From NCBI RefSeq assembly GCF_947492645.1, contig NZ_CANLMZ010000013.1:10195-74194 (forward strand): a DNA stretch of 64,000 nt, given 5' to 3'. Positions 11,786 to 53,899 of the stretch are shown piece after piece (position 1 is the first letter of the stretch; every line of letters begins with the position of its first letter). Position numbers and translations under genes: made by a program. The DNA is from an uncultured Pontibacter sp. GTDB taxonomy: Bacteria > Bacteroidota > Bacteroidia > Cytophagales > Hymenobacteraceae. Under the pieces are notes generated by a model. That model did not search any database and had not been told where the DNA came from. It was given only the letters and a program-made list of their open reading frames with translations.

Positions 11786-11808
11786 TAATTGAAACTATAG
11801 CTATGAGT

Positions 11809-19598: not shown

Positions 19599-20057
19599 CT
19601 ACCAGTTCACCATATACTGATAAGGAACGCCCGCTTCATAATCATCCTCATCAATTCCCAGATCATCTCCGACGTAATTGTCCACATAGTTGGTCATCCG
19701 GCATTCCTCAAATGTAAGGTAGCCTTGAATGTAACCGCCCTTATCCCAGCTCTCCCCGGTGCGTTTCATATACTCTTTTTTGAGGAGAGCATATTCCTGA
19801 GGAGCGCCTAAGTAATAGAAGCCTGAGGAACATCTGAAAAAGCCATGTTCTCTTTGATGAGTCCAATAAATATCCAAATTCTTACCGGCTATTCCCTTGT
19901 TCTTCTCTATTTCTTTTTCCAGGTTCACCAGCACTTCGATCAGGTTATAATCGCTAAGCGCGCTTATGTCCACCACCTCTTGTAGATGGTCAATTATTTT
20001 GCTGCAGTAGGTAGGCTCACTAATAGAATGTAAGTGTGCGTTGGCTTCGAAAAACAT
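19599..20057 (-). CDS. hypothetical acidic protein, paralogue of 20579..21010
   Basis: 152-aa ORF. It shares a block with the divergent neighbour (LLKKEYMKRTGESWD versus MLKREFNKRTGQEWD, plus a preceding L..LE.E helix). I recognise no known domain. Confidence 0.6.
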   Translation of the reverse strand: MFFEANAHLHSISEPTYCSKIIDHLQEVVDISALSDYNLIEVLVNLEKEIEKNKGIAGKNLDIYWTHQREHGFFRCSSGFYYLGAPQEYALLKKEYMKRTGESWDKGGYIQGYLTFEECRMTNYVDNYVGDDLGIDEDDYEAGVPYQYMVNW

Positions 20058-20578: not shown

Positions 20579-21010
20579 ATGAAAAAGCAACCTGTTTTTG
20601 AAGCCATCACACAACTACGAGCTGTCCACACCAATGACTTCAGAGCTTACACCCGCTGCATCGAAAAGTATGTTGGCAAGACCGACCCATTTCTCAGATG
20701 GAAGCTGGAGCACCTGGAAGATGATTCCCTATGCCGGGTACTTTACGATCTGGAAGAGGAAATGTCCTATTATGAACAGGAGCATGGATACCAACCTAAC
20801 AAACCGATGGAGCTCACCATGCTGAAGCGGGAATTCAATAAAAGGACTGGCCAGGAGTGGGATGAGGTTTACATCGATTTTGAAGAGATCCGTTACGGTG
20901 GTTACGCTTCCATTCACTCCTATACGACAAGAGAGCTAAAAATTATAGAAGATCAGTATAGCGGCTATGACTGTACGGACGGTTTCAATACGGATGACTT
21001 TAAGATTTAA
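20579..21010 (+). CDS. hypothetical acidic protein, paralogue of 19599..20057
   Basis: 143-aa ORF that shares the KRTG-x-EWD block with the divergent neighbour. Confidence 0.6.
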   Translation: MKKQPVFEAITQLRAVHTNDFRAYTRCIEKYVGKTDPFLRWKLEHLEDDSLCRVLYDLEEEMSYYEQEHGYQPNKPMELTMLKREFNKRTGQEWDEVYIDFEEIRYGGYASIHSYTTRELKIIEDQYSGYDCTDGFNTDDFKI

Positions 21011-21420: not shown

Positions 21421-22059
21421 TTACTGGACAATCCACATCAACGTACGCTTCACTGCCTGCTGCAATTTTTGATCTACTGCACGCATGGCGCTGTTGGAAA
21501 TAGCCGGGCAGCCCCAGCCTTCCGGTGTGCCGGCTGGGTAAACTTCTTCATCACTTACCTGCTCCCACGAGTGGAAAACAATATCCCGGCGGGTAGCATT
21601 GTTGTTAGTCCCTTCCTGGCCATGCATCAGGTATTTTATTCTTATACCCCACTGACTCGGACCACGCTCCCCTAAAATGTATTTACCTACTGAAGAACAA
21701 TGGCTGTTCTCGATATTGCTGAATTTAACCTGATCTTTGGACACGTCACTAGACCAGGGGTTGTCGCAGGCGCCGTGGCTTACCAAAAAGCTATTAGTTA
21801 TTTTACTTTGGTTAAAGTCCCAAATAAAGAATCGCTTTAAACCGGAGTGCATGCTCATGTCAATGATGATAAAGAAATCGGTATTCAGATTTCTGGTGCG
21901 GCAATACTCCTCTGCTTCGTGAGCTTTTGCTTCCAGTTTAGCCATATCAGGACCAGGATTAGCAGTTTCCCATATCGCCTGACTTTCGTCTCCCTCAGGG
22001 CTGCTGCAACTGATTAGCAATAGCAGGAAAAACATAAAGATGGGTTTGAGTACTTTCAT
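21421..22059 (-). CDS. L,D-transpeptidase catalytic-domain-like (YkuD_2-type) lipoprotein
   Basis: Start chosen at MKVLKPIFMFFLLLLISCSS (lipobox LISC). The body block IIIDMSMHSGLKRFFIWDF...LVSHG...FSNIENSHCSSVGKY resembles murein L,D-transpeptidase catalytic domain family proteins. There is an ATGA stop/start overlap with the upstream gene. Confidence 0.65.
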   Translation of the reverse strand: MKVLKPIFMFFLLLLISCSSPEGDESQAIWETANPGPDMAKLEAKAHEAEEYCRTRNLNTDFFIIIDMSMHSGLKRFFIWDFNQSKITNSFLVSHGACDNPWSSDVSKDQVKFSNIENSHCSSVGKYILGERGPSQWGIRIKYLMHGQEGTNNNATRRDIVFHSWEQVSDEEVYPAGTPEGWGCPAISNSAMRAVDQKLQQAVKRTLMWIVQ

Positions 22060-22295
22060 ACCTTGACCTTTGAATATTGTACCTGTTTTACTCTTCTGCG
22101 TTGGGCCTGTATAAGGCGGATCTTCTGAACTATAAACAGCAAGCTTAAACCTGCTGTTAGTAGCGGCCATACAATTACGAATAGCAGCGTATTTATTTCA
22201 TAGTAAGAGAGACCTGTGAGGTTAGCCAAGTTAATAACAAAATCGGTGCAGTAATTGAAAACGGCCGTCACAGCCTGTGAAATCAGGTTATACAT
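22056..22295 (-). CDS. small hypothetical membrane protein
   Basis: 79 aa with one strong hydrophobic helix (LLFVIVWPLLTAGLSLLFIV). It overlaps both neighbours by 4 and 8 nt, which suggests translational coupling. Confidence 0.45.
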   Translation of the reverse strand: MYNLISQAVTAVFNYCTDFVINLANLTGLSYYEINTLLFVIVWPLLTAGLSLLFIVQKIRLIQAQRRRVKQVQYSKVKV

Positions 22296-22695
22296 GGCGC
22301 TTGTTTATTTTTGTTATTTGAACTTGCATCAGAAACAGTTTAACGAGTAGGTACGACATCAGTAAAGGCCACAGCAAAACCAGGAAAATGAGATTGGCAG
22401 CGCCATAGTTTCCGAAAAGCATTAAACCTGAGATCATTCCAAAATAAAGCGTATCTGTTATTCCGAAATAGCTTTTAGCTAACTTAACATGATGTTGCTT
22501 GCAGTAAGTTGTATCATGAAAGCACTTCCAACTGCAGGCGTCCGGCAAAGCTTCGGCGGTATTCATCAACAGCGGCCTAGTGGTCTTTTGCTTTTCAGGC
22601 ATAGTGCTTCTGGTATATTCATTTATAACGATCATAGTCGCAAAAGCGAGCGCCAGCGGGAGAAGATAAAAGGAGAGGCTTTTCAGGAAATACAT
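22288..22695 (-). CDS. hypothetical membrane protein with Cys/His cluster
   Basis: 135 aa with an N-terminal helix, the cluster CSWKCFHDTTYCKQHH, then two more hydrophobic helices. Confidence 0.5.
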   Translation of the reverse strand: MYFLKSLSFYLLPLALAFATMIVINEYTRSTMPEKQKTTRPLLMNTAEALPDACSWKCFHDTTYCKQHHVKLAKSYFGITDTLYFGMISGLMLFGNYGAANLIFLVLLWPLLMSYLLVKLFLMQVQITKINKRHV

Positions 22696-22708
22696 TTTGT
22701 TTGTGTGC

Positions 22709-23194
22709 TTAATGCCAGTCTATAGTTGTCAGGATGTGTTGCTTTGCTGTATTTAGGTCCAACACTTTTACCCATTGCTTTTTACTTAAAGCTCTGTGAA
22801 CCATGTAATCTTTTGCTGTGCCAGATTCACCTAAGTTTCCGCTTTCGTCAATTCCACGCTCTGCTATTACTTTATTCATTTGTAAATCCCAGACAGCATA
22901 TCCTGTGTTATCTTCAGCAATCAAGAAAGCTTGTTTGTCTTCCTGTAGTACCTTCAGGTTTACTACATCGCTGTAATGAGCCTGGTGGATTTCCCATTCG
23001 CTGGACCTGCCGTTTTCAAATTCCAGGTGTATGATCCTCTTAACAATACCTTCGGGATTAAAGAAGGTCTCTGAATAGAGAGTGGCGTTAATTTCACTAT
23101 GTGGGGTGGCAAAGCGTGTAGATGCTAGTTTCTCCCTTGAAGTACAGGAAGACAGGAACAGAAAGGTAAACAGTAGAAGTAAGTTTATTTTCAT
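22709..23194 (-). CDS. hypothetical lipoprotein
   Basis: Start chosen at MKINLLLLFTFLFLSSCTS (lipobox LSSC) inside the 22709..23218 ORF. No domain recognised. Confidence 0.55.
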   Translation of the reverse strand: MKINLLLLFTFLFLSSCTSREKLASTRFATPHSEINATLYSETFFNPEGIVKRIIHLEFENGRSSEWEIHQAHYSDVVNLKVLQEDKQAFLIAEDNTGYAVWDLQMNKVIAERGIDESGNLGESGTAKDYMVHRALSKKQWVKVLDLNTAKQHILTTIDWH

Positions 23195-23320
23195 GATAGG
23201 GTAAGATAGCTTACACAAGTATAATAAAATCTATATATATTGTAAAGGTGTAAGCTATAGTTAATCTTTAGCTAGTGCTAGAACTAGTGCATCTTAATAT
23301 TTAAAATTTGAATTTCAGGT

Positions 23321-24250
23321 ATGAAAACATATAACGGAACCACCGTGAAGGTGATAGGAGTGGGCGGTATCGGCTGCAATACTATAAGCTACATCCATGA
23401 GCAGAAACTCAATCATGTTCAACTTGTAGCCTGTGATTTTCAAGGACCAGTTTCTGATAGTGGAATAGCAGACACGCTATTCCTAAAAGCAAATGAACAA
23501 GAAGCTAATCCTGCTAATGCTGACGCTGAGATAATCCAGAACACGGTCTTCACTAAAGCAGAACGTGTGAAGGAAATGCTGGTAGAAGGCAATACGGAGA
23601 TTGTGTTTATAGTTGCCGGGATGGGTGGCGCAACCGGAACAGGTGCTGCACCGGAGATTGCCCGCTTGGCTAAAGAACTAAGTTTGCTGACGATAGGTGT
23701 TGTGACGGCTCCTAAAGACTCAACTATAGCTGAAGCCGGTATTAATGCTATGAAGAAACATACAGATACTACCATTGTGCTTTCAATAGATAAGCTGAAC
23801 CAGCAGAAGGAGATTTCGCTAAGGATAGATGTTTCTGATCAGCTAAATAAATATGTTGCCACAGCGGTGCGGGCTATAACTGAAATAGTGACAGTAACCG
23901 CTGAAGTAAATGTAGATGTAGAAGACGTGCGTATAGTTATGGCAGGAGCTGGAAGAGCTACTGTTGGAAGCGGTACAGGTGCCGGGGAAGGCCGTGCTAT
24001 GATAGCTGCCCAGGAAGCAATTGCTACAGCTTTGCTTGGCAACGAAATTCAAGGTGCTAACCGGGTACTGCTTTCTGTTATTTCCGGACCTGAAACTGAG
24101 CTTGAAATGGAGGAGCTGACAGAGATAACTGAGTTTATCCAAAACAGTACCAGCGAACAGGCGGAGATAATTTTTGGCCATGCGATTGATGAAGACCTAG
24201 AAGATCAGCTGCGGGTAACATTCATCGCATCTACCTTTTCTGAGAACTAA
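23321..24250 (+). CDS. FtsZ/tubulin-family GTPase paralogue (core only, no C-terminal linker or tail)
   Basis: 309 aa with VIGVGGIGCN (G-box 1), the tubulin signature VAGMGGATGTGAAPEIA, LLTIGVVTAP, a T7-like N-x-D-x-x-D (VNVDVEDV), and a C-terminal FtsZ-type subdomain (GANRVLLSVISG...IIFGHAID...VTFIAS). Confidence 0.85.
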   Translation: MKTYNGTTVKVIGVGGIGCNTISYIHEQKLNHVQLVACDFQGPVSDSGIADTLFLKANEQEANPANADAEIIQNTVFTKAERVKEMLVEGNTEIVFIVAGMGGATGTGAAPEIARLAKELSLLTIGVVTAPKDSTIAEAGINAMKKHTDTTIVLSIDKLNQQKEISLRIDVSDQLNKYVATAVRAITEIVTVTAEVNVDVEDVRIVMAGAGRATVGSGTGAGEGRAMIAAQEAIATALLGNEIQGANRVLLSVISGPETELEMEELTEITEFIQNSTSEQAEIIFGHAIDEDLEDQLRVTFIASTFSEN

Positions 24251-24300
24251 TTACAAGCTTGCAAAGTAGCAAGGGCAGGGGAGTAGGCGCAGTATATTTG
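24251..24300 (+). promoter_or_regulatory. conserved upstream element TTACAAGCTTGCAAA plus -7 box TATATTTG (copy 1)
   Basis: The 15-nt motif at 24251-24265 (core palindrome CAAGCTTG) is identical to 29245-29259. The TATATTTG box at 24293-24300 lies exactly 42 nt downstream of the motif start in both copies and matches the Bacteroidota -7 consensus TAnnTTTG. Confidence 0.65.
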
Positions 24301-24323
24301 TGCCGTACTATCCACTCCTGCCT

Positions 24324-24821
24324 ATGCTTGAACCCCTGCCGTTTGTTCCTTATCCTTTTGTTACGCTGCCGGACGAAAATCTGAGCTACGAACCTATCCT
24401 GTATGTAGCGCCCGATCGCCTGATCTGCACAGGTGATGTTACGTTTAAAACCAAGCACTACCCGTTAGCTAAAGTATTGTCTGATAAGTTCAAACAAGAG
24501 TGGTCGCAGGAAATGGCGGACGAGATGGCCCGAAGGGTAATTAAAGAGTCTAAAGGCTATCTCGTAAGCAGAGACCTTTTTGTTAGTGCCATTATCCTGC
24601 CTGACTTTACGTTCTCAGCTATGGAGTTAGCTTATTCTGGCAAGACTCCCATTACTGGTCTCGACGTTACCTATGGATGGCCTTCCGGCAAGATCACCCG
24701 CATTACTAAAATACTGTATGGGTATACAGTTGGAATGGAGTCATGCATCCTGCATGTGCGCCACGAAGAAGCCGCTTTGCCCGGAAAGGTACATCATCAG
24801 CTCCAATTTCCTATTCAGTAA
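24324..24821 (+). CDS. hypothetical protein, family shared with 29315..29776
   Basis: The C-terminal block VTYGWPSGKITRITKILYGY...ILHVRHEE matches VTYTWPNGRITQVKRVIKAY...VLYVRHES in the paralogue. The start is moved to the ATG at 24324 because the ORF-track start (24300) overlaps the -7 box. Confidence 0.6.
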   Translation: MLEPLPFVPYPFVTLPDENLSYEPILYVAPDRLICTGDVTFKTKHYPLAKVLSDKFKQEWSQEMADEMARRVIKESKGYLVSRDLFVSAIILPDFTFSAMELAYSGKTPITGLDVTYGWPSGKITRITKILYGYTVGMESCILHVRHEEAALPGKVHHQLQFPIQ

Positions 24822-24841
24822 AGCTCATATAAACGATAGCT

Positions 24842-25861
24842 ATGCGCAAGAAACAGATCACTACTTTTTACATGCCCCAGCAGGTAGATGCCCTCAACGG
24901 AGAAGACCTGTATACCCGCAGTCCGAACAAGCCGGCTTTGCTGTTAAACAAATTAAAGCTGGAAGGTCTGATGCCGTACTTTGATGTAAAAGAATATGCT
25001 CCTTTTGAAAAGGAAGAATTTTACCTGGCGCATACACAGGAATATGTAGATGCCTTTTTTGAAGGTACCAAACCACTGGCTACCACCAACGGCCTTACCT
25101 GGAGCGAGAACCTGGTCAATTCTGTGTGCTATACAAATGCCAGCCTATACCATGCTATCAAATACGCCATGCAGCACCCTGAAGTGCTCACCTTTAGCCC
25201 GACCAGCGGCTTTCACCACGCCAAACCTGATCGTGGCTCCGGGTTCTGTACCTTTAGTGGACAGGTGATTGCTTCGGTTAAATTATACCAAGAGCTGGGT
25301 GTTTCCGGGGCTTACCTGGACCTGGACCATCACTTCGGCAACTCCATAGAAGACAGCCGCAGTTTCGTACCAGATCTGGACAAGGCGATTCCTGTCTATG
25401 CCAACATAAACCCGAAAGGTACCAACGAAAGTTACCTGGCAGATCTGTGCCGCAACCTGGCTATACTTAAAGAGAAAATACTTGCCAGAGAGATACACTA
25501 TATTGTATGGTGCCATGGGGCCGACTCGCATGTGTATGATGACTTGGGCGGAAGCGTGAATACAGATTACTGGTTGTTGGTGGCAGAGTTGTTTTATAAG
25601 TGGGTGCTGGAAGTAGAGCAAGAGTTGGGGTACCATTTACCAGTTAGTATGTCGTTGTTTGGGGGCTATCGTACCAATGCTTATGATTCAGTACTATCAC
25701 TACACACAGCTGATCTGGTAATGGCTGCCAATATGCTTTTAGGCCACTCCATTGCTTACGAGCCACAGGTAGAAGTAAATCCTTATATCAGTAAAGAACC
25801 TTTCCGGGTAGCCATTGCTGCCGGCGAAACCATTATGGGCTACCTTGACGAAATTTTGTAA
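24842..25861 (+). CDS. histone-deacetylase (HDAC/acetoin-utilisation/acetylpolyamine amidohydrolase) superfamily protein
   Basis: 339 aa with SGFHHAKPDRGSGFCTFSG (HH plus GFC block), YLDLDHHFGNS (D-x-H metal ligands), CHGADSHVYDDLGG and FGGY (catalytic Tyr context). Confidence 0.75.
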   Translation: MRKKQITTFYMPQQVDALNGEDLYTRSPNKPALLLNKLKLEGLMPYFDVKEYAPFEKEEFYLAHTQEYVDAFFEGTKPLATTNGLTWSENLVNSVCYTNASLYHAIKYAMQHPEVLTFSPTSGFHHAKPDRGSGFCTFSGQVIASVKLYQELGVSGAYLDLDHHFGNSIEDSRSFVPDLDKAIPVYANINPKGTNESYLADLCRNLAILKEKILAREIHYIVWCHGADSHVYDDLGGSVNTDYWLLVAELFYKWVLEVEQELGYHLPVSMSLFGGYRTNAYDSVLSLHTADLVMAANMLLGHSIAYEPQVEVNPYISKEPFRVAIAAGETIMGYLDEIL

Positions 25862-26053
25862 AATTCCTACACTTTCTAAGTATATAATTTTTATTATATA
25901 GTATTTTTATATACTTTTGTAATACAATTCCCCTTTATTTATTGGTTAGTGAAAGTAAAAGTGCCGAAAGGGCGCTTTGTGTTCGTTCGTGTCCTTGATT
26001 AGGATGCGATGTGTTCCCGTGTGTCTGTATTTCAACCTATAAACCCCTGTTAA

Positions 26054-26611
26054 ATGAGAAGAGACTTTATTTGCCGCCAGTTAGAAGATGTTCGTTCGTC
26101 CAATGAGCCAATCGTCCTTAATGAGCAAGATGTAGACCTGAGCGGATTGGACTTGTCCGGTCTTAACATGAGCGGGTCAACTTTTACAAAGGTTAACTTA
26201 AAAGGAGCTAATCTTAGAGGGGCAATTCTGAAAGAGGTTGAGTTTAAAGGTGTTGAATTGGATGGAGCTAACTTACAAGGGGCTTGTTTAGTGGACGCAA
26301 AGTTTGACTGCAGCCAACTTATTAAAGCTAACCTTAAAGGAGCAGAGATGCGCTATACTAAACTCTTCTCTACTTTCTTTACTAATGCAGATTTAACCGG
26401 TGCTGACCTGTCCGGCTGTAAGATGGCTTACTCAGATTTCTCTCATGCCATTATGGACGATGCAAACTTGTCTGATGCTGACATTAACCTGATCGTTAAT
26501 GAAGATGACGAGATGGATAAGAATGACTTTACATGTGCTTCCATGTATGGCGCAATCATTACCTCACCTGAAGTAAGAGTTTTTCTAATAGAAGAAGGAG
26601 CAGAGCTGTAA
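26054..26611 (+). CDS. pentapeptide-repeat protein
   Basis: 185 aa with uninterrupted A(D/N)LxG-type pentapeptides (DLSGLDLSGLNMSGSTFTKVNLKGANLRGAILKEV...ANLQGACL...ADLTGADLSGCKM). Confidence 0.9.
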   Translation: MRRDFICRQLEDVRSSNEPIVLNEQDVDLSGLDLSGLNMSGSTFTKVNLKGANLRGAILKEVEFKGVELDGANLQGACLVDAKFDCSQLIKANLKGAEMRYTKLFSTFFTNADLTGADLSGCKMAYSDFSHAIMDDANLSDADINLIVNEDDEMDKNDFTCASMYGAIITSPEVRVFLIEEGAEL

Positions 26612-26704
26612 AATATGGTCGGCCTATACCTCTATAGTATAGCCCGATTATAGTTTCATAACATAGCCTGTAAGTTTTAACCTATAACCAACTATAGCCA
26701 ACAC

Positions 26705-27123
26705 ATGATAGAAGTAACAGCTGGAGTAATTCAGAGAAATGGCCTTTTTCTAATTGCCCGACGTGCGCCTGGTAAAAGCCTGGAAGGGTATTGGGAGTTT
26801 CCGGGTGGCAAAGTAGAAGCCGGAGAAACCCACGAATATGCCTGGCCCGAGAACTAAAGGAAGAGTTGGACCTTGATGTAACGGTTGAGGAATACATTGG
26901 CGAATCTGTGTCTGGCGAAGGTAATAAGCAAATACGATTAGTTGCCTATGCTGCCAGATCGGAACAGGAAACCATTACTTCTAAAGACCATGACCAGCTA
27001 AAGTGGATCAGTATCTACGAGTTTGGCGACTATAATTTTGCCCCGGCGGATATTCCGATTATTGAGGCACTACTTATGAAGCGGATTGCGATAGTGGAGC
27101 AGTTGGCTGAAAGTTTAAAATAA
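26705..27123 (+). pseudogene. NUDIX (MutT-like) hydrolase interrupted by a frameshift inside the NUDIX box
   Basis: The frame from ATG 26705 reads MIEVTAGVIQRNGLFLIARRAPGKSLEGYWEFPGGKVEAGETHEY and stops at 26855. The rest of the box (CLARELKEELDLDV) and the C-terminus continue in another frame (ORF 26791..27123). Restoring one nucleotide near 26838-26842 rebuilds G-x5-E-x7-REUxEE. Confidence 0.75.
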
Positions 27124-27149
27124 GTTCTTTACACTTTAAAATTATAATT

Positions 27150-28244
27150 ATGAAAGTAGACATTGGAGAATCGATAATTTATTCTTGGCTTAGACATGAA
27201 AAGCAGTGTCAGTTTGTACAGCTTAATTGGAAGACTTCAGGGACTTGGGAAAAATCAAATATTGAACTTGCTGAAGACATTTTTGAAAAATTAAAAAAGA
27301 TAACTGATACAAGAGGGGTAAACTTAATTGGAGAATCTGTAAAGCTTGACCAATTTTTGAGGCAAGCTGAAATTGATGTGTTGGGATTATCTATCAATAC
27401 TAGTACAGGTATAAACAATCCATCTTATGCCATCTCAGCAGTTGATATAGCATTCCATGAGGGAGGATTAGGTTATAAGAACCCACACTTAGTGGTTGCT
27501 AAGAAACTTGCTAGAGCTGCATTAATCACTTTAATTTATTTCAAAACTGATAATGCGGAAATAGTTTTTGCTTCCCCTAAGGTACATAAAGATACATTAA
27601 ACAAGCTTGATGTAACATTATCAGAGGTTGAAAGATGTTTTGATAGTTTATCTTTTGACTTTAAGTGTATTTTCAATGATAATTTTGAAAAACAGATATT
27701 ATTACCAGTCCTAAATCATACTAGGAATATAGCCGATACATCAGAATTATTTTCACGAGCTACTAAACTGCTTGATGTATTCGGTTGCTTAAGAGAGAAT
27801 TTAAATGTAGAAGATTTAGGTAATATAGAAATTCAAGAATTAGATCAAGATGATGTTTCGGCAGATCAGAGAAGTTTAACAGATGAGATTTCTCTAGATG
27901 CCCTTTCATACAAAGAGTTAACTAAAATGTTGGATGAAGGTAACTTAAAGATTGGAGAGTTTGCGAAAACAATTTTTAATAAATTAGATGAAGATCAGGC
28001 TCTATTCCACCGTGTACTTGACTATTTAGAGAATGATAGAATTCCAACTGGCAAAGAACTTAAATTGTTGAAGCAGCTTAATCCCAATGATGATATAAAT
28101 AATCAGATAAAAGATTCAAAAGGGCGAGCAAGATATTACAGAAACCCTCTGAAGAATAATGATTACATTCTTTACAGTCAATGGGTAGAAGCTAGGCATA
28201 AAGTTCCTCTCAAACAAATGTTGGCTGATTTTAAATTGCTTTAG
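27150..28244 (+). CDS. hypothetical protein (AT-rich)
   Basis: 364-aa uninterrupted ORF in a very AT-rich segment. No motif that I can assign with confidence. Confidence 0.6.
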   Translation: MKVDIGESIIYSWLRHEKQCQFVQLNWKTSGTWEKSNIELAEDIFEKLKKITDTRGVNLIGESVKLDQFLRQAEIDVLGLSINTSTGINNPSYAISAVDIAFHEGGLGYKNPHLVVAKKLARAALITLIYFKTDNAEIVFASPKVHKDTLNKLDVTLSEVERCFDSLSFDFKCIFNDNFEKQILLPVLNHTRNIADTSELFSRATKLLDVFGCLRENLNVEDLGNIEIQELDQDDVSADQRSLTDEISLDALSYKELTKMLDEGNLKIGEFAKTIFNKLDEDQALFHRVLDYLENDRIPTGKELKLLKQLNPNDDINNQIKDSKGRARYYRNPLKNNDYILYSQWVEARHKVPLKQMLADFKLL

Positions 28245-28297
28245 GTTATTTATTTTAGTGATTTAAAATCATTAGTACGACAAAGCTTTATATTCTT

Positions 28298-29113
28298 ATG
28301 ATGGACATTACAACAAATGAAGAACCTAATGTACTAGAGGTCGCTTTAAGTACAATAAATAAACTTGCACATCAGCCAGATATAATGAATAGGCTGAATG
28401 AATTAGCTACTAAAACCACGTCATTACATTTATTCCTACGATTATATGATGACTATGAAAAAGAGGGTTTAGATCAAGACGATGAGATTCTAAATTGGAC
28501 CGTTCCAGTTATTACACGTGAATTAAACGCTGCTTTATGGAATTTAGCAAGCGGTTTTTATAAAACGGCTGCTACTTGCTTAAGTAGTGCATTAGAAATG
28601 GGGATAGTTGCCTTATATTTTCAGGTTCTTGAAAATGAAAAAGGTAATCAAGTAATGAGTAAAGAATTTGTTGAGTGGTATTCTTACAATGCATCTACAC
28701 CAAGCTGGAAGAAGGTAATAACGAAATTAAAACAAGACCAAAACATAGAGAAGTTCTCAAAGCAATTTGATTACGTTCCTCTTAAGGAAGTTAATGATCT
28801 CTATAGCTATTTTCAAGATTTTATACGGAACAGAAACCTATCTTCTATAGACACTGAAGGAGCTAATTATATGAATATGAGAAACTCTGCAGGGGAATTC
28901 TCAAATGATGAATTTTTAAGATTTAGCGATGCTTTTGATAGTACAATAGGTATGATTGCTTCTTCTTGGGCTTTAGTATACCCACACATCGTTGAAGGAT
29001 ACTCTCATACTTACAGCAGTACTTCCTATAGTACGTTAGTAGATTTATTTCAACCACTTTATCCTCAGTTTGTACTATACCATTTAAATACAAAAAGCAC
29101 GGCAGGTGCTTAA
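28298..29113 (+). CDS. hypothetical protein (AT-rich)
   Basis: 271-aa ORF on the same strand, 53 nt after the previous gene. No recognised domain. Confidence 0.6.
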   Translation: MMDITTNEEPNVLEVALSTINKLAHQPDIMNRLNELATKTTSLHLFLRLYDDYEKEGLDQDDEILNWTVPVITRELNAALWNLASGFYKTAATCLSSALEMGIVALYFQVLENEKGNQVMSKEFVEWYSYNASTPSWKKVITKLKQDQNIEKFSKQFDYVPLKEVNDLYSYFQDFIRNRNLSSIDTEGANYMNMRNSAGEFSNDEFLRFSDAFDSTIGMIASSWALVYPHIVEGYSHTYSSTSYSTLVDLFQPLYPQFVLYHLNTKSTAGA

Positions 29114-29244
29114 GGCATAATGGTTTATAGTAACCTTTGACTGTTGTTCTGATACAAAACTAGTTGTTTCTGAATGTTAGAAATAAATTATACGCTTAAG
29201 GGGTCATTGAGACAATTATTCCTTAAGCTTTTACCCCTGGTTTA

Positions 29245-29294
29245 TTACAAGCTTGCAAACTATCAGTGCAGCACTTCATACAGGTTTATATTTG
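29245..29294 (+). promoter_or_regulatory. conserved upstream element TTACAAGCTTGCAAA plus -7 box TATATTTG (copy 2)
   Basis: The motif at 29245-29259 and the TATATTTG box at 29287-29294 have the same 42-nt offset as copy 1. A 10-bp perfect inverted repeat acaggtttat (29280-29289) / ataaacctgt (29305-29314) brackets the -7 box and abuts the ATG at 29315. Confidence 0.65.
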
Positions 29295-29314
29295 AACATT
29301 TAACATAAACCTGT

Positions 29315-29776
29315 ATGATTAAATATTCTTATCCTTTTATTATTCCACATGAAGAAGGTGGTAAGTTATATGTTTCTTCCAATCGTTTTATAGGTGCAGG
29401 CACCTTTAGCTATGGAATTGATAAGGAAATTATAGAGCAGGCTCTATTAGATGAATGCAAGCAAAAATGGCCAGATAAAATTGCTCCGCAAATAGCTAGT
29501 GGATTAGTTACTAGCCTAACAATTGGGTACAGCAGTAGTTTACCTATGATTAATGCGCTTGGGGTTCCAGATCATGTAACGAAACAAGTTCAACATGTTT
29601 TTTATGGAGGTGTCGAGATTATGGGACCAAATGTAACGTATACTTGGCCCAATGGCAGAATTACACAGGTTAAAAGAGTAATCAAGGCATATGCCTTTCA
29701 AGACTCAAATGTATTGTATGTGCGGCATGAGTCGGTTAAGTCTCATAGCGAGATTAACTACATGTTAAGTGTTTAA
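29315..29776 (+). CDS. hypothetical protein, family shared with 24324..24821
   Basis: 153 aa. See the paralogue for the shared C-terminal block and the shared upstream element. Confidence 0.65.
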   Translation: MIKYSYPFIIPHEEGGKLYVSSNRFIGAGTFSYGIDKEIIEQALLDECKQKWPDKIAPQIASGLVTSLTIGYSSSLPMINALGVPDHVTKQVQHVFYGGVEIMGPNVTYTWPNGRITQVKRVIKAYAFQDSNVLYVRHESVKSHSEINYMLSV

Positions 29777-29864
29777 CAGAGTAAAGGTTAAGCCTGTCTA
29801 TTTTCCGCATTTATAAGTCGAGTGTGTTCTATTTTTTTCAAGTAGTGTCTCCATCTGTAGTGAT

Positions 29865-31034
29865 ATGATGCAAGTTCATTTAATTCGTTCTCATGATTTT
29901 AGTTCTGAAGCTTTTGAAATGATTCAGAACGTGCTTCAATCTAAAGCAGGACTTATATCGTTTATCGGCAGCAAAACCATATGTGGATGTCTTAGACTGA
30001 GTGTAGTTGTTGAAAAAGACTTTGATGGTTATACCTCAGATACCAGCTGGCAGAACTTTAACGACTTCTGTACCAGATACCGAAATGAAAATGGTTTATC
30101 ACCAGAGGATGTTGTGGTACTACTTACACCCGAACCATTATTCTTAAACTGGTTTACCGCTTTTGACGATGAAGAGAACAACATCTTTATACGAACAGAT
30201 GAGTGGGAAAAGTACTTACATTGTAGCCCGGTATATCCTGTTGCTTACCTTGTAATGGCTCAGGTTCTACAGAAAGCATTGTACAAATCAACTGCTGTTA
30301 AGCTAGCGCATACACACGATAAACCAGAGGGATGTATCAATGACTTTTGTAGCTATAAAAAGGACATAACCTTTAAGTTGCGTACAGCTGATATTTGTGT
30401 TCCCTGCTTAGAGAAAATGGTGCATGCAGGATTAAAGCCAGAATACATTACCCAGGCACTTTCACTCTTTGATGTAATACGCCAAGAGATGTTATTTCGG
30501 CAGCGCTACAAATTAAACTTAGTGCCCAAGAGCATTGCTATAAGAAGAAACAAAGGCAGAAAAAAGGGTATCGTTGTAGAGTTATTGGAATCGAAACAGT
30601 TAGTGGAACTTAACCCAACACAGTCTCTTGTTTATCTCTTCTTTTTAAATCATCCAGAAGGGGTAGTACTAAGTAAGTTATTGCATACAAAGTATAGAGA
30701 AGAGCTACTTTATCTATATGCAAACCTTACCAACAGAATAAAAATCAATAATACTGATTCATTGAATCGGTACGCTGGTATTGAAAATACTATTGACTCT
30801 TTAGTTACGGATGATGCCATACTTTCTCCTATCATTGCCAAAATTAAAAAGCTATTTATAGACAAAATTGGCCTTGAGAGCTCAAAAGTGTACTACATCC
30901 AGGGCGAGAAATCTATGCCTAAAAAAATCAGCTTAGATCGTTCAATGATCACTTATGAGCAGGATGTTATTGATTATGTGCTAGGACCATATCATTTTGC
31001 ACAGCCGGAAAGTAATACTGTTTTAATACAATAA
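29865..31034 (+). CDS. hypothetical protein with archaemetzincin-like Cys4 motif (HExxH degenerate) and C-terminal helical domain
   Basis: 389 aa. The segment LAHTHDKPEGCINDFCSYKKDITFKLRTADICVPC has the same C-x4-5-C-x-[MY]...C-x2-C layout as the canonical archaemetzincin at 47031, but lacks HExxH. Confidence 0.55.
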   Translation: MMQVHLIRSHDFSSEAFEMIQNVLQSKAGLISFIGSKTICGCLRLSVVVEKDFDGYTSDTSWQNFNDFCTRYRNENGLSPEDVVVLLTPEPLFLNWFTAFDDEENNIFIRTDEWEKYLHCSPVYPVAYLVMAQVLQKALYKSTAVKLAHTHDKPEGCINDFCSYKKDITFKLRTADICVPCLEKMVHAGLKPEYITQALSLFDVIRQEMLFRQRYKLNLVPKSIAIRRNKGRKKGIVVELLESKQLVELNPTQSLVYLFFLNHPEGVVLSKLLHTKYREELLYLYANLTNRIKINNTDSLNRYAGIENTIDSLVTDDAILSPIIAKIKKLFIDKIGLESSKVYYIQGEKSMPKKISLDRSMITYEQDVIDYVLGPYHFAQPESNTVLIQ

Positions 31035-31059
31035 ATAAAGTGACAGTGAAAAGGTAAAT

Positions 31060-32070
31060 ATGGACTTTATGGGAATCAGTCTCTTGTTAAAAGCTACTTT
31101 ACTTTTTTTGCTTCTCTCATGCGCTAGTCTATGCAAAGCGCAGGCACTAAGTAAAGCAAAGTTTTACAAAAAGATTGAAAAGCTTTATCTAAGTGGCGAG
31201 TATGATAAAGCTCTTAAGGAGATTAAAAAGCTAGAGCAGGAGAGATTTGATAAAGAAGGCAACTTAAAGTATTCTCTCCGAAATGACATAGTCTACTACC
31301 ATTTCAAACTTTCAGCAATTTTAAAAAGAGGTGAAAAAAATAATCTTCGAGAATTGGTCGGTCTTTATAGTAGGCTACAAGCACTGGATAGCACAAAGCA
31401 ATATCTCACACTGCCACAATACAAGTCTCTTTTAATATACTTTAATCAGGTTGCTGAGAAGTTCCTGCATACGGATCAACTAATGCTAACAAGGAGTATA
31501 GTTAACATACTCGCTAGACATGGAGATACGACAGTCCTTTATCATAGTGTTTACCCGAAGCTTGAGACATTAGAACAAGCTAACAGAGGTGCCTTGCAAG
31601 AGTTTTTGATAAAGTATGATTTTGGCGAAGTTGATAAAAAGGCATTAGCAGTTAATAAGCAGTCTGCCATCAAAGAACAGGCTCTGGAATTAACAAAAGG
31701 CCTGACTCATGATTTTGAGAAAGCGAGGGCAATCTATAGCTGGATTGTATATAACATTACCTACGACTACACCTATTCATATTACTTTGCAGGCGATACC
31801 TTTAAGAACAATTCAGGAGTATGCAGTGGGTTTAGTTACTTGTTTCAAGAGATGTGTTACTACGCTGGTTTGAGTGCTGTTCGAATAACTGGGAGGGCTT
31901 ACAATGGATCAGGCGTAGGAAGGCATGCATGGAATTCTGTGGAATTGTATGGTTATGACTTCTTTATTGAGAGTACTTGGGCATCCTGTGTTAAGGAAAA
32001 AGTGGATGACTATTTTCTAGTAGATCCTCAAGTATTTTCTAAAACTCATATTGCAGACATATATGATTAA
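31060..32070 (+). CDS. secreted transglutaminase-like (papain-fold cysteine peptidase-like) protein, copy 1
   Basis: 336 aa with a signal peptide, a helical N-terminal half, and a C-terminal core SGVCSGFSYLFQEMC...GRHAWNSVE...IESTWAS (Cys and His in transglutaminase-core context). It is a paralogue of 48456..49472. Confidence 0.7.
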   Translation: MDFMGISLLLKATLLFLLLSCASLCKAQALSKAKFYKKIEKLYLSGEYDKALKEIKKLEQERFDKEGNLKYSLRNDIVYYHFKLSAILKRGEKNNLRELVGLYSRLQALDSTKQYLTLPQYKSLLIYFNQVAEKFLHTDQLMLTRSIVNILARHGDTTVLYHSVYPKLETLEQANRGALQEFLIKYDFGEVDKKALAVNKQSAIKEQALELTKGLTHDFEKARAIYSWIVYNITYDYTYSYYFAGDTFKNNSGVCSGFSYLFQEMCYYAGLSAVRITGRAYNGSGVGRHAWNSVELYGYDFFIESTWASCVKEKVDDYFLVDPQVFSKTHIADIYD

Positions 32071-32183
32071 AACTTCCTTATCTTTTTTAAAATATATTTA
32101 AAGCGCTATATTATACAGCGAAACTTTCATACTATAGTTGCTATAGAAAATTTATAAACTTCTCACTCTTACAATTTTTATTA

Positions 32184-33995
32184 ATGGAAAACTTGCTAAC
32201 TAAATCCGACTTCCTGGTGGCTCAGGAATGCCCAACTAAATTGTATTATAAAAAGCTTGGAATGCCAACTTCTGATGAGGGCAACGAGTTTAGGAATATG
32301 TTAGCTGAAAGTGGATATGCTGTTGGTAAAATGGCGCAATTATATTTCCCTGAAGGAATTTTAGCTGGTAGTGATACTAATACAGAAGCTGCCATTGAAG
32401 CAACTAAAGCGCTGTTAGAAAGTGAAAATGTTACTTTGTTTGAAGCAACTGTTAAACATGGTGCAATGCTTGTTAGAATTGATATTCTACAGAAAGTGGG
32501 CAATGCGTTAAAAATCATAGAAGTTAAATCCAAGTCATTTTCTTCTAGTGAATTCAATATAGCAGAAGCAAAAGGGAATACCTACTTTGGAAGCAAGTGG
32601 TCTGCTGAATTACATGATGTAGCATTCCAAAAATTAGTGCTTGCATCAGCTTATCCAGAGTCAATTATTGAAACTTGGCTGATGCTGCCAGATACAGATA
32701 AAATTACTAAGATGGAAGGGCTTGCATCTATGTTTGAGCTTCAGGAAGCTATAAATGGTACAGGTAAAACAGACTATATTTTTAATTTTACTGGTGATGA
32801 GGAGGAGCTTCGCAAGGAAAGTCTGTTAAGTACAGTAAGAATAGATAAATTTATCACACCTGCCATGGCTGCAGAAGCTTATAATTTTGAGCAGGCAGTT
32901 GTTGCCAATAATAAAATTCAAGTCCCGATTTCTGCGAAATGCAACAATTGTAATTACACAGTTACAAACGCTAATTTTCCTAAAAGCGGTTATGAACAGT
33001 GTTGGGGTAATTTAGCATACAGAGAACCGCACATTTTAAAGCTGTCATATTTAGGAAATTTAAACACTGAAAAGAAAGGGAAATTGATTGACAGGCTCAT
33101 TAAAGAAGGTAAAGTTTTGCAAACTGACATCCCAGAAGCTGAGTTGCAAAAAATGAAGATTCGTAGGCCTTGGTTTCAGGCTTATCGTAAGGAAGAGTTT
33201 TTTGAAACAGACGCGTTTAATAAAATAACGTCTACTCTCAAGTATCCACTTTACTTCGTTGACTTTGAAACAACAAATATGGTAATACCTCCACATGCAG
33301 GTATGAGACCTTACCAAGATGTAGGTTTCCAATGGAGTTGTCATACCATTAAAGAAAAGGGTGCACCTATAATTCATGACGAGTGGATCAATACAAAAGC
33401 TGCAAATCCAAATCTTGAATTTTTAACGTCATTGAAAAACTGTATCGGAAATAGTGGTACAGTTTTAACCTGGTCTAATCATGAGTCGAAAACTATAAAT
33501 AAATTAGTACAACAGTTAGACCCTACTACTCACGAAGATTTGATCCAATGGGCAGAAACCTTGAAAAAGGAATCAGCTAGAATACTTGATATGCGCGAAT
33601 TCGCTACTAGTAACTATCATCATCCGTTGATGGGTGGTAGAACTTCTATCAAGGTAACTCTGCCTGCTGTTCTTGCTGCCATGGACACAAAGAAGATTGA
33701 AAACATGTTAAGTCCTCAAAAATTGTATGGCACTGATGAAATAGGTCAGGTTATCAATCCCTATAATTTGTTGCCAGATATAACCATTGGTAATAAAGCA
33801 TTAAATGTAAGTGATGGCACGGGAGCTATCAAAGCTTATAAAGAGATGATCTATGGTGAATATAAAAATGATACTGCAAAATCAGAAGCTGTAAAAAAGT
33901 CTCTACTTAACTATTGCCATTTAGATACGCTAGCCATGGTTATCATTTGGAAACACTGGTGTGATCTAGCAGGCTTTGAATTTAATGTTAACTGA
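32184..33995 (+). CDS. DUF2779-like protein (PD-(D/E)xK nuclease-like N-terminus plus RNase H/exonuclease-like domain)
   Basis: 603 aa with N-terminal LTKSDFLVAQECPTKLYYKK, IEVKSKS (E-x-K), a CNNCNY...C cluster and YPLYFVDFETT, as I recall for DUF2779 family members. Confidence 0.65.
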   Translation: MENLLTKSDFLVAQECPTKLYYKKLGMPTSDEGNEFRNMLAESGYAVGKMAQLYFPEGILAGSDTNTEAAIEATKALLESENVTLFEATVKHGAMLVRIDILQKVGNALKIIEVKSKSFSSSEFNIAEAKGNTYFGSKWSAELHDVAFQKLVLASAYPESIIETWLMLPDTDKITKMEGLASMFELQEAINGTGKTDYIFNFTGDEEELRKESLLSTVRIDKFITPAMAAEAYNFEQAVVANNKIQVPISAKCNNCNYTVTNANFPKSGYEQCWGNLAYREPHILKLSYLGNLNTEKKGKLIDRLIKEGKVLQTDIPEAELQKMKIRRPWFQAYRKEEFFETDAFNKITSTLKYPLYFVDFETTNMVIPPHAGMRPYQDVGFQWSCHTIKEKGAPIIHDEWINTKAANPNLEFLTSLKNCIGNSGTVLTWSNHESKTINKLVQQLDPTTHEDLIQWAETLKKESARILDMREFATSNYHHPLMGGRTSIKVTLPAVLAAMDTKKIENMLSPQKLYGTDEIGQVINPYNLLPDITIGNKALNVSDGTGAIKAYKEMIYGEYKNDTAKSEAVKKSLLNYCHLDTLAMVIIWKHWCDLAGFEFNVN

Positions 33996-34081
33996 GATGT
34001 TAGTAAGGTAACAATACTTCTATTATATGGGTCTTTAAGCGCTCATAGCTTCAGAACATTGAATAGAGTACAAGTATCTTA

Positions 34082-34687
34082 ATGGATAAGGCTTTAAAAA
34101 GAATAAAACAACTTTTCCTGTATAGTGGGGCCACCATGATTGTATTTGTTATAATCATGGTTTCTCCATTAGGACGAATTATCGAGAAAGGCATAAACCT
34201 TCATTTTATGTCAATCCATAACAGGATGCTTAGCAACGAAATAACTGCTTTTGACAGTATAGAGTGTAAGTTGCTGTATGAAGGTATGATAGTAGCTGGC
34301 AAGTTCTTGTATCCAGAAGGGGCAGAGATATTAAATCATTATATCAATGGAAATGGCTCAGATTTAAATCTTGATCCAACCTATATACAATCTTCTCCAG
34401 TTGTGGTAAGACATTTACAAAAAATGCGGATTGGTGAAACCAAAGTGGTTAGGTTTTCACAGAGGGAGGATTGGAGACTTTCTTATGCATTAAACCCATT
34501 TAAACTAAAGAAAGAGAAGGATAGAGTATTACTTTGGCAAGAAATAGAGTTTCTCAAAAGCAAACATGTTTATACTGAGTTAAACTTTGGTGTTTTCAAA
34601 TTAAAGCTACAAGATGGTCTAATTCATTCTTTAAAACCAAAAAAATTTGTAGTTAGAAGCGAATGGGTATATAAATCTGTAAAATGA
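34082..34687 (+). CDS. hypothetical membrane-anchored protein
   Basis: 201 aa with one N-terminal hydrophobic helix (YSGATMIVFVIIMVSPL). No recognised domain. Confidence 0.5.
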   Translation: MDKALKRIKQLFLYSGATMIVFVIIMVSPLGRIIEKGINLHFMSIHNRMLSNEITAFDSIECKLLYEGMIVAGKFLYPEGAEILNHYINGNGSDLNLDPTYIQSSPVVVRHLQKMRIGETKVVRFSQREDWRLSYALNPFKLKKEKDRVLLWQEIEFLKSKHVYTELNFGVFKLKLQDGLIHSLKPKKFVVRSEWVYKSVK

Positions 34688-34767
34688 TAATATTATACTT
34701 TGTGTACTGTCAATAACTCTATTGCTATGTTCAGCAGTACTTCAATTAAAAGTATACGCAACTATCA

Positions 34768-35277
34768 TTATCTCACAAGCTTTTCAAACTCTATCCTTGA
34801 TTTGTTTTGGCTCCCAACAACATTGTGGGGGAAAGAGGCCAATCTTACTACATAGTAATTCGAAATATAACTAATACTTATATAAGAGTAGCCTTCATCC
34901 ATTTGAATCGCATGGTGTCTAGGGGAATCTTTAAAGTTATCATAAATAGCATTAGCTAATTCTTTAATATCCTTATACTCATCCTGAGTAGAATATCCAC
35001 AAAGCTCAGCCGAAACAACACATTCTTCGCATATGGTGCCATTGTAGTGATATAGATCTTGCTCTTTATACAATCTATGGTTAAATAAATAGGTGTCATA
35101 TAATAAATTACTATCATAATAAACATCTACAGGTATTCCCTTTAGTTTACTCCGCTCATTTTTAATAATTTTTACATACTCCAAATTTAGTTGTGTTAAC
35201 TGATCCTTAGTAAGGAAAGGTTTTAAGTGCATTAAAGATGCGAGACACGCCAAAAATATGATTTGAAGTATGTGCAT
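34768..35277 (-). CDS. secreted CAP/SCP-like (YkwD-type) domain protein
   Basis: 169 aa with a signal peptide. The block NERSKLKGIPV...DSPRHHAIQMDEGYSYISIS...YVVRL resembles the bacterial CAP domain (SPxH...Y..IGI...Y.V). Confidence 0.45.
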   Translation of the reverse strand: MHILQIIFLACLASLMHLKPFLTKDQLTQLNLEYVKIIKNERSKLKGIPVDVYYDSNLLYDTYLFNHRLYKEQDLYHYNGTICEECVVSAELCGYSTQDEYKDIKELANAIYDNFKDSPRHHAIQMDEGYSYISISYISNYYVVRLASFPHNVVGSQNKSRIEFEKLVR

Positions 35278-35503
35278 AAACTAAAAGAATCAGAGGCTTT
35301 AGGAGTAGTTAAATTCTAATAAAAGCTGATCATTATTTATTAAAAGAACTCCTTACTAAACGTGCATGATTTTTTCATTATTATATTCTGATATTTATAT
35401 ATATTTGAAAATATAATAAGGGGAATTCTTGATAACCCACCTACCGTAATAATAGGTTCTGCTCAACTACTCTCTTATTTGTATATCCAAATCCAATTTT
35501 TAA

Positions 35504-36619: not shown

Positions 36620-36623
36620 TCTA

Positions 36624-53895: not shown

Positions 53896-53899
53896 TATC

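Follow-up and report, generated by a model that had tools for sequence, protein, structure and literature searches.

What does a copy of the cell division protein FtsZ do on a variable chromosomal island, next to a predicted deacylase? The question is raised by a locus in a 64,000-nucleotide stretch of DNA from an uncultured Pontibacter sp. (contig NZ_CANLMZ010000013.1, positions 10,195–74,194; the whole stretch is termed the window, and positions are counted from its first nucleotide). The plus strand at 23321–27123 carries five genes, encoding an FtsZ-like paralogue (FtsZl), an orphan protein (termed DUF, for domain of unknown function), a histone deacetylase-like enzyme (HDAC), a pentapeptide-repeat protein and a NUDIX hydrolase. 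On sequence evidence, FtsZl appears to be an independent, lineage-specific duplicate of a bona fide FtsZ that has been truncated and is evolving fast. One of its two polymerisation faces is strongly constrained and its GTP pocket is decaying. It is tentatively read here as a modulator of the FtsZ of its host. The DUF and HDAC genes that always follow it form a firm, obligate pair.

The FtsZ-like paralogue and its family

FtsZl is a protein of 309 aa encoded at 23321–24250 (plus strand) and consists of the globular core only. It matches the Pfam families Tubulin (PF00091, 1.9e-19) and FtsZ_C (PF12327, 5e-20), and all 49 of its PDB sequence matches are FtsZ; the score against the equivalog model TIGR00065 is 190.9 bits, which is below the cut-off of 295.2. 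Canonical Pontibacter FtsZ and FtsZ proteins of solved structure served as the alignment references for the motifs. The G-box is near-intact (GGATGTG, canonical GGGTGTG) and the T7 loop is intact (NVDVED, i.e. N-x-D-x-x-D), both as noted in an earlier, sequence-only reading of the window. In the C-terminal domain the H10 and S9 segments are nearly identical to the host type (ELEMEELTEITEFIQ...AEIIFGHAID). However, the full FtsZ core described by that reading is not present. The T3 loop is lost (canonical GLGAGANP is replaced by EANPANAD), the T5 FxFEG motif is gone through a deletion of six residues, T1 is changed from GGGG to GGIG, the T6 Asn is replaced by Ile, and the Phe and Asp of H7 are replaced by Ser and Asn. 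This partly degenerate pocket suggests that nucleotide binding is impaired.

The chain ends ...IASTFSEN directly after strand S10 of the globular core and has neither a linker nor a C-terminal peptide, again in agreement with the earlier reading; canonical Pontibacter FtsZ proteins are 500–530 aa. Because the tail is missing and the pocket has decayed, it is very unlikely that FtsZl is the only FtsZ of the organism.

A search of 5.8 billion protein clusters gives about ten short relatives of 307–322 aa with 93–44% identity, one of them from Pontibacter sp. HSC-14F20. The next-best matches are ordinary FtsZ proteins of 500–530 aa from Pontibacter and other Cytophagales (43–44% identity). The most diverged member of the family, with 34% identity, is from Pontibacter sp. 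MBLB2868 (locus L008; related loci are numbered L001 onwards and proteins P0005 and so on). All relatives end in FSEN, FSDN or FSPL just past the core.

In a neighbour-joining tree, which is distance-based, has long branches and leaves out TubZ, PhuZ, CetZ and FtsZl1/2, the FtsZl family is monophyletic in 200 of 200 bootstraps and is sister to canonical Hymenobacteraceae FtsZ in 150 of 200; its branches exceed those of the canonical proteins many-fold in length. FtsZl also carries TAEVNVD, the form of the T7 region that is specific to Hymenobacteraceae. This form and the placement in the tree point to a lineage-specific duplication. The flanking genes are those of a variable island, and the sequence-only view of FtsZl as an accessory paralogue outside a dcw cluster is thus borne out. 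Assignment to TubZ, PhuZ, CetZ or FtsZl1/2 was ruled out on Pfam, TIGR and best-match evidence; the Pfam Tubulin_2 score is only 16 bits against a cut-off of 27. FtsZl has no match in PHROGs. A phage origin was rejected, the matches in phage databases being ordinary bacterial-type FtsZ with 32–39% identity.

A motif table of the family shows that the T1, T3, G-box, T5, T6 and H7 contacts have been lost progressively and independently among the members, while T7 (NxDxxD) is retained in 11 of 12. The clade that includes the window protein is without T3 and T5. The position of the G-box reads DSTGSG in P0009 and DRREAMG in the L008 (MBLB2868) protein; in both, the nucleotide pocket is essentially gone and yet the genes are intact.

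Sequence constraint is unevenly distributed in the same direction. The identity of FtsZl to canonical FtsZ is 23–47% in the N-domain and 47–60% in the C-domain, which is the reverse of the pattern among canonical FtsZ proteins (N-domain 77–79%, C-domain 69–75%). The contrast is sharpest against L003: identity is 30% in the N-domain of FtsZl and 82% in its C-domain, with the DUF, HDAC, pentapeptide and NUDIX sequences beside it at 87–89%. The ratio of nonsynonymous to synonymous substitution rates (dN/dS), calculated by the Nei-Gojobori method with dS saturated in distant pairs, is 0.30–0.53 for the N-domain of FtsZl and 0.07–0.16 for its C-domain. For comparison, the ratio is 0.04–0.11 for DUF and HDAC and 0.09–0.20 for the pentapeptide gene. 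From these identity and dN/dS contrasts it follows that constraint on the N-domain is relaxed but not absent, and that the bottom face (T7/H10/S9) is strongly constrained.

When the window (23321–26611) is compared with L005 (10001–13296), dS is 0.08–0.17 for FtsZl and 0.34–0.53 for DUF, HDAC and the pentapeptide gene. Because the FtsZl value is far below that of its neighbours, the island appears to be a recombination mosaic in which FtsZl alleles seem to have been exchanged between islands.

The DUF-HDAC pair and the shared box

The gene at 24842–25861 (plus strand) encodes a 339 aa protein with an HDAC fold, predicted from Pfam, catalytic residues and AlphaFold2 (AF2)/Foldseek analysis to be a Zn-dependent deacylase of the class IV/HDAC11-like type. 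It matches PF00850 at 3.4e-19 (69.7 bits, gathering threshold 27.9) with only residues 27–171 aligned, and its PDB sequence matches also cover the N-terminal half only. The window protein displays the motifs GFHH, DLDHH, GADSH and FGGY. Over 126 sequences the His-His dyad, the Asp/His/Asp zinc ligands (D-x-H and a third ligand Asp) and the GGY tyrosine are at least 90% conserved. The enzyme is therefore predicted to be catalytically intact, as had been suggested from the window sequence alone. The class IV-type motifs TSGFHH (xGxFHH) and FGGY are present, TSGFHH in place of RPPGHH.

The AF2 model of the Rufibacter homologue, which is 66% identical to the window protein, has a predicted local distance difference test (pLDDT) value above 90 for the HDAC domain. 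The best Foldseek matches are 9gky, 9gkv and 9gz5 (Vibrio cholerae HdaH, Leptospira HDAC11), with target-normalised template modelling (TM) scores of 0.75–0.77 and 18–19% identity. V. cholerae HdaH and Leptospira HDAC11 are class IV, or cluster 5, fatty-acid deacylases (PMC11532494, PMC13325672). By its modelled fold, the enzyme appears closest to the HDAC11/class IV type and not to HDAC6.

The HDAC-like family is large, with 1,063 clusters at E ≤ 0.001; the 120 matches listed are 50–93% identical. Its hosts are Bacteroidota, one planctomycete, megaphages and one phage-like contig. Beyond the Hymenobacteraceae island the relatives are solo genes in unrelated neighbourhoods. Three records of 0.64–0.74 Mb annotated as uncultured phage encode relatives with 48–52% identity (among them LR756504.1 and LR756501.1, L009 and L010). 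The relative on a 92.5-kb phage-like contig (L020, JGI 3300076144, 7594–12221) is 61% identical, and its neighbours there encode a PARP-domain protein, a dNMP kinase and a PurZ-like adenylosuccinate-synthetase homologue. In the solo, phage and phage-like neighbourhoods inspected outside the island, no FtsZ-like gene is located beside the HDAC relative. A widespread FtsZ-HDAC pairing was rejected on these grounds.

The DUF gene is located at 24324–24821 (plus strand) and encodes 165 aa. Alignment with seven database relatives places the start at the ATG at 24324 and not at the GTG at 24300; with this correction, the small unknown protein, the HDAC-fold protein and the pentapeptide-repeat protein are all present on the FtsZl strand as the sequence-only reading had listed them. 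The DUF sequence has no match in Pfam, NCBIfam, PADLOC or PHROGs. A profile search of 1.84 billion representatives gives the clusters of DUF and its paralogue, plus two weak matches of repetitive sequence that are regarded as spurious. The paralogue (153 aa, 28% identity) is encoded at 29315–29776 (plus strand), before a 389-aa island protein.

In Rufibacter roseolus the two proteins are fused. P0137 (511 aa; L006/L007, 10001–11536) is a DUF::HDAC fusion, and full-length DUF aligns to its residues 1–160. DUF and HDAC, which occur as one protein in Rufibacter, are a firm, obligate pair, and DUF is presumed to be a regulatory or targeting subunit of the enzyme. Since its paralogue precedes the 389-aa orphan and DUF itself is fused to the HDAC-like enzyme in Rufibacter, a modular adaptor or regulatory domain with differing partners is also suggested. 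Structural models of DUF are of low reliability: the DUF part of the natural fusion has a pLDDT below 50, and of the models of DUF alone, one reaches 72.8 and the other four 44–58. Foldseek finds nothing in the PDB that matches the 72.8 model (best E = 0.36).

The order FtsZl, DUF, HDAC is found at every FtsZl locus for which there is context, i.e. at least nine distinct Pontibacter-type loci (the window, L001/2, L003/4, L005, L008, L016, L017, L018 and L019), although the DUF of L016 is a partial, uncalled match only. Co-conservation with DUF and HDAC, which the earlier reading had made the touchstone of its proposal, is thus found throughout. The pentapeptide and NUDIX genes usually come next after HDAC. 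The left flanks differ: a YkuD_2 operon is found in the window, L005 and L019, a tyrosine integrase and a Schlafen/AlbA_2 gene beside housekeeping genes in L001, PARG in L003, and GAPDH with a 223-aa gene in L008. Downstream there is a looser backbone that consists of a 389–402-aa orphan, a UPF0227 esterase with a 329-aa protein, a 216–219-aa protein and YkuD, with a transglutaminase-core protein at some loci.

The FtsZl loci all belong to a single narrow lineage. With two DUF peptide patterns, which miss the known copies in Rufibacter and L008, a scan of the genome collection finds 2 of 185,579 species representatives. The module is thus very rare; its known carriers, Pontibacter-type soil bacteria, amount to a few genomes of Pontibacter and Rufibacter together with metagenome contigs. 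Besides the genome of the window, the assemblies GCA_947499125.1, GCA_019599265.1 and GCA_051904785.1 bear FtsZl. No module was found in the IMG/VR viral contigs with the same patterns, which are blind to diverged copies, and this absence does not discriminate between the readings considered below.

A palindromic box, TTACAAGCTTGCAA, abuts the stop codon of FtsZl at 24251–24264 (plus strand) and has the appearance of an operator-like element shared across the island. It is followed by TATATTTG at 24293–24300 (plus strand), 42 nt from the start of the box and 24 nt before the DUF ATG, with an inverted repeat on both sides. The -7 promoter consensus of Bacteroidota is TAnnTTTG, which TATATTTG fits. 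A second exact copy of TTACAAGCTTGCAA is found at 29245–29258 (plus strand), 70 nt before the DUF paralogue, and here too TATATTTG is 42 nt downstream. The inverted repeats around the -7 motif extend to the start codon and differ in sequence between DUF and the paralogue; their predicted RNA folds have z-scores of -3.1 and -3.9.

The FtsZl-DUF spacer is conserved at the DNA level in all related loci, where it contains an invariant TTACAAGCTTG box and TAnnTTTG. The conserved element upstream of the small gene that had been noted from the window alone is thereby substantiated. The consensus of the box is TTACAAGCTTG(C/T)AA. Its 11-nt core is present in all 14 island loci (L001–L008, L014–L019) and in none of six non-island loci. 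The box precedes DUF, the DUF paralogue and the Rufibacter fusion, as well as the 389–402-aa gene, the 216–219-aa gene and a minus-strand pair encoding a 328-aa protein and UPF0227. In L008 it is found before the gene ahead of FtsZl and before a UvrD-PDDEXK gene. Most forward copies have an exact -7 motif at an offset of 41–42 nt. FtsZl itself has no such box before it in the window.

The box looks like a putative operator of an island-wide regulon, and it is read as marking DUF-HDAC as a transcription unit separate from FtsZl. A WYL protein encoded at 52812–53837 is a candidate regulator. The spacing expected between -33 and -7 elements is 19–21 nt; the box lies about 30 nt from the -7 motif and was rejected as a -33 promoter element.

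Readings of the FtsZ-like protein

The explanation preferred here, with somewhat less than even confidence, is that FtsZl is a one-faced modulator directed at host FtsZ and encoded by a mobile island. It would most likely act on the cell's own FtsZ or on the binding partners of FtsZ. In outline, a copy of Hymenobacteraceae FtsZ, carried on a variable island that is flanked by an integrase in at least one genome, has shed its linker and the tail that anchors FtsZ to the membrane. The GTP pocket and the top (N-terminal) polymerisation face would have been freed from constraint, while the bottom face (T7 loop, H10, S9) would have been held by strong purifying selection. Because it has no tail, such a protein could not be anchored at the membrane, and filament extension would be improbable. 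It would still offer the surface by which an FtsZ subunit normally enters the GTP pocket of its neighbour, and could dock by its bottom face on a host FtsZ monomer or on the exposed N-terminal (minus) end of a protofilament. Expression of the island may then alter Z-ring assembly through sequestering, capping or nucleating. DUF and the HDAC11-like deacylase would belong to the same inherited unit, under a box-plus-promoter element of their own.

FtsZ grows at the end that exposes the C-terminal domain, which is a hotspot for SulA, MinC and MciZ, and a protein that occupies the N-terminal face would act as a minus-end cap, as a nucleator or stabiliser of filaments, or as a sequesterer of monomers (PMC11157280, PMC11938149). 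In a less probable form of the modulator reading, FtsZl would be a cap or nucleator of minus ends for bacterial FtsZ, comparable to gamma-tubulin.

Several points weigh against a host-directed modulator. A subunit with only a working bottom face adds poorly to filaments and is the less effective design for an inhibitor (PMC11157280, PMC11938149). P0005–7 and P0010 retain most of the GTP contacts, and for this reason the ancestral and some present-day forms of FtsZl may bind GTP and co-polymerise. The cluster search gives FtsZ of 500–530 aa in more than 40 named Pontibacter species, with none of these entries tied to an assembly that bears FtsZl. The Rufibacter locus has the downstream backbone and DUF-HDAC without FtsZl. 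The link between FtsZl and HDAC is one of conserved adjacency, which could reflect the common descent of closely related islands and not functional coupling.

The closest rival gives the same conserved face a different role and fits the defence-island context equally well. FtsZl would not act on FtsZ but would be a decoy or guard that shows the C-terminal (plus-end) face of FtsZ as bait for FtsZ-binding inhibitors or toxins of phages or competitors, and would soak them up or sense them, switching on DUF-HDAC and NUDIX. The retained T7, H10 and S9 elements form the surface that SulA, MinC and MciZ target (PMC11938149), and the bait would be harmless to the Z ring because the top face and the tail are lost. 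The setting is rich in defence genes: type I restriction-modification, AAA_15, WYL, NERD-TPR, PP2C/kinases/FHA-FtsK and a PDC-S07 NUDIX gene in the window, and GmrSD, Schlafen/AlbA_2, PARG and UvrD-PDDEXK in related loci. The apparent exchange of FtsZl alleles between islands (low dS between the window and L005) also agrees with this, and the decoy or antagonist branch of the sequence-only reading fits the sequence pattern. However, no phage or toxin partner is known, and FtsZl, DUF and HDAC are unmatched in PADLOC. The variable half is the N-domain and not the supposed bait surface, and its dN/dS below 1 indicates relaxation, not demonstrable positive selection. A decoy is on balance rather doubtful, and an extended version of it must be called improbable: an immune or counter-attack device in which a one-faced decoy guards the plus-end face against division inhibitors of phages or competitors, its engagement releases a DUF-gated HDAC11-like effector, and a regulator acting on the TTRCAAGCTTGYAA box drives the island. 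It is also unlikely that the genes are mere neighbours, with DUF-HDAC as the working unit and FtsZl a separate, perhaps decaying passenger that stands beside it through shared island ancestry. The box and -7 motif of DUF-HDAC directly after the FtsZl stop codon agree with such a separation, as do the Rufibacter fusion and remaining backbone without FtsZl, the solo or phage-borne HDAC relatives, the one narrow lineage of the FtsZl loci, and the 2 of 185,579 species representatives picked up by the two DUF patterns, which miss the Rufibacter and L008 copies. Yet FtsZl is intact in at least 12 diverged lineages with a C-domain dN/dS of 0.07–0.16 and nearly invariant T7/H10/S9, and the FtsZl-DUF-HDAC order and spacing hold down to 34% FtsZl identity (L008) while the upstream flanks and the downstream order vary.

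The box suggests a further reading, in which FtsZl is the division-side part of a stress regulon whose island operons (FtsZl, L,D-transpeptidases, transglutaminase-like protein, esterase, deacylase) retune division and peptidoglycan. TTRCAAGCTTGYAA is located at a fixed 41–42 nt from the -7 motif before several unrelated operons, and YkuD, YkuD_2, two transglutaminase-core genes and lipoproteins recur in the backbone. Truncated FtsZ paralogues elsewhere have been proposed to tune septal peptidoglycan synthesis. A mobile accessory island is nevertheless the better fit to the patchy and rare distribution, the differing chromosomal positions and the one adjacent integrase, and many of the flanking genes are classical defence genes; a stress regulon of this kind is improbable. 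Very improbable is the proposal of the sequence-only reading that FtsZl forms an autonomous, GTP-dependent cytomotive filament with assembly set by (de)acetylation through HDAC, as in the tubulin/HDAC6 pair. The near-intact G-box (GGATGTG) and intact T7 of the window protein, the intact catalytic residues of HDAC and the conserved adjacency are compatible with it. However, the window clade is without T3, T5 FxFEG and the base contacts, P0009 and L008 lack the G-box and essentially the whole pocket although their genes are intact, constraint on the protein is weakest in the N-domain, and there is no tail for membrane or partner attachment. Loss of the pocket with retention of T7 and the C-domain disfavours such a filament and favours a one-faced mimic. 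The analogy itself rests on adjacency, and the enzyme is closest to HDAC11-type fatty-acid deacylases and not HDAC6 (PMC11532494); its relatives are solo or phage genes without FtsZ, and DUF-HDAC has a promoter-like element of its own and is without FtsZl in Rufibacter.

The surrounding island and known systems

The left part of the window, from 1 to 19.2 kb, carries housekeeping genes (GH92, MFS, ROK, SDR). From about 19.2 kb to the end of the window there is a composite and in part low-GC island. Its contents include PP2C, four tandem Ser/Thr kinases, an FHA-FtsK protein, an M54 peptidase, YkuD, two transglutaminase-core proteins, NERD-TPR, WYL, AAA_15 and type I restriction-modification. 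Scans of the window for tRNA genes and Rfam families were both empty.

At the left edge of the island are two orphan genes, 19599–20057 (minus strand) and 20579–21010 (plus strand), which are divergently oriented paralogues (31% identity, E = 7e-11) and match no family. A lipoprotein, two small membrane proteins and YkuD_2 are encoded at 21421–23218 (minus strand), divergently from FtsZl. The divergent envelope operon of the earlier reading is therefore present. It is kept only in the closest relatives, L005 and L019, and lies outside the conserved module.

Downstream of HDAC, the pentapeptide-repeat protein (185 aa, identified by Pfam) is encoded at 26054–26611 (plus strand), with a TAnnTTTG motif upstream at 25912. 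The NUDIX hydrolase gene follows at 26706–27123 (plus strand) and is the only gene of the group that is matched in PADLOC-DB 2.0, as candidate PDC-S07 (1.1e-21); FtsZl, DUF, HDAC and the pentapeptide protein have no match there. It is broken by a 1-nt deletion near position 26836, which by comparison with the intact orthologues in L005 and L003 falls inside the NUDIX box. This is either a pseudogene in this genome or a sequencing error.

The 389-aa orphan protein is encoded at 29865–31034 (plus strand); it is present in every island locus, and in other loci it is directly behind the box. A transglutaminase-core protein follows at 31060–32070 (plus strand) and is also found in the Rufibacter locus, L008 and L019 but is absent from some island loci. 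Its paralogue, the second transglutaminase-core copy, is at 48456–49472, beside YkuD at 47924–48439. The 389-aa, 364-aa, 216–219-aa and 328-aa backbone proteins of the island have no significant Pfam or PDB sequence match.

Positions 35504–46559 encode a PP2C phosphatase, then four tandem paralogous Ser/Thr kinases (574, 550, 483 and 574 aa) and then a 1042-aa FHA-FtsK/SpoIIIE ATPase, a cluster that resembles an NTPase-based conflict system. The region 47031–63851 is dense in genes of conflict type: the M54 peptidase, YkuD, the second transglutaminase-core gene, NERD-TPR (1010 aa), the WYL regulator, an AAA_15 ATPase with a 335-aa partner, and a type I restriction-modification system with HsdM, HsdS, a 413-aa orphan and a 992-aa open reading frame, which is presumably HsdR. 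The G+C fraction is 0.32–0.38 in the blocks 27000–36000 and 44000–56000 and 0.42–0.49 elsewhere, and the segment 27150–29113 is missing from the otherwise collinear L019. The low-GC blocks are consistent with recent insertions into the island backbone.

The sequence-only reading was not aware of any described system with the composition of the module, and none was found in PADLOC, in PHROGs or in the literature on defence-island FtsZ paralogues, neighbourhoods of FtsZ-like proteins with deacetylases, and anti-phage systems with an HDAC fold. The module is a curiosity and not a new class of system. FtsZl adds a further, independent case to the known truncated FtsZ proteins and stands out by its island location, reversed constraint, pocket loss and invariable DUF-HDAC11-like neighbour. 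FtsZm of magnetotactic bacteria is likewise a tail-less FtsZ copy, located in the mamXY operon of the magnetosome island beside unrelated functional genes; it is reported to polymerise with GTP and to serve in magnetosome biomineralisation. FtsZm differs from FtsZl in lineage, neighbours and state of the pocket, and there are no magnetosome genes among the annotated genes of the window.

FtsZ1 of Agrobacterium tumefaciens and FtsZ2 of Sinorhizobium meliloti, in the Rhizobiaceae/Phyllobacteraceae, are like FtsZl independent, core-only duplicates of host FtsZ outside dcw (bioRxiv 10.1101/2025.09.29.679267, 10.1101/412759). These truncated paralogues are non-essential (bioRxiv 10.1101/2025.09.29.679267, 10.1101/412759), and overexpression of the truncated FtsZ1 of Agrobacterium blocks division (bioRxiv 10.1101/2025.09.29.679267). 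However, the rhizobial proteins keep their GTPase, form polymers together with the main FtsZ and are retained by vertical descent across families. FtsZl, in contrast, has a decaying pocket and a retained bottom face; it arose separately, within or next to Hymenobacteraceae FtsZ, and is very rare, borne on an island and always followed by DUF-HDAC. Engineered mutants of the longitudinal interface (top face) of FtsZ resemble it in having one face only, and SulA, MciZ and MinC in involving the same T7/H10/S9 plus-end surface (PMC11938149, PMC11157280). Unlike these, FtsZl is a natural FtsZ homologue with the full fold and neither a laboratory mutant nor an unrelated small protein. The window enzyme shares with human HDAC11, V. 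cholerae HdaH and Leptospira HDAC11 its predicted fold, the Zn-ligand and catalytic residues and xGxFHH (PMC11532494), but at 18–19% identity to HDAC11/HdaH it belongs to a separate family, which in this lineage is paired or fused with the orphan 165-aa domain.

The impact of these observations is limited by the rarity of the module, and the link of FtsZl to the enzyme rests on adjacency. The DUF::HDAC fusion and the phage-borne relatives point to an unexplored clade of HDAC11-like deacylases in the biology of phages and their hosts. Truncated FtsZ paralogues are known, and the reason for their retention is poorly understood. The FtsZl family is a natural experiment in which one polymerisation face is selected while the GTP pocket and the other face decay, a pattern of constraint that is expected of a binder of FtsZ or of FtsZ partners and not of a filament former. 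Should FtsZl prove to bind minus ends, to sequester FtsZ or to serve as a decoy, a novel type of cargo would be added to those of conflict islands, and the polarity of FtsZ filaments could be probed with a genetically encoded tool.

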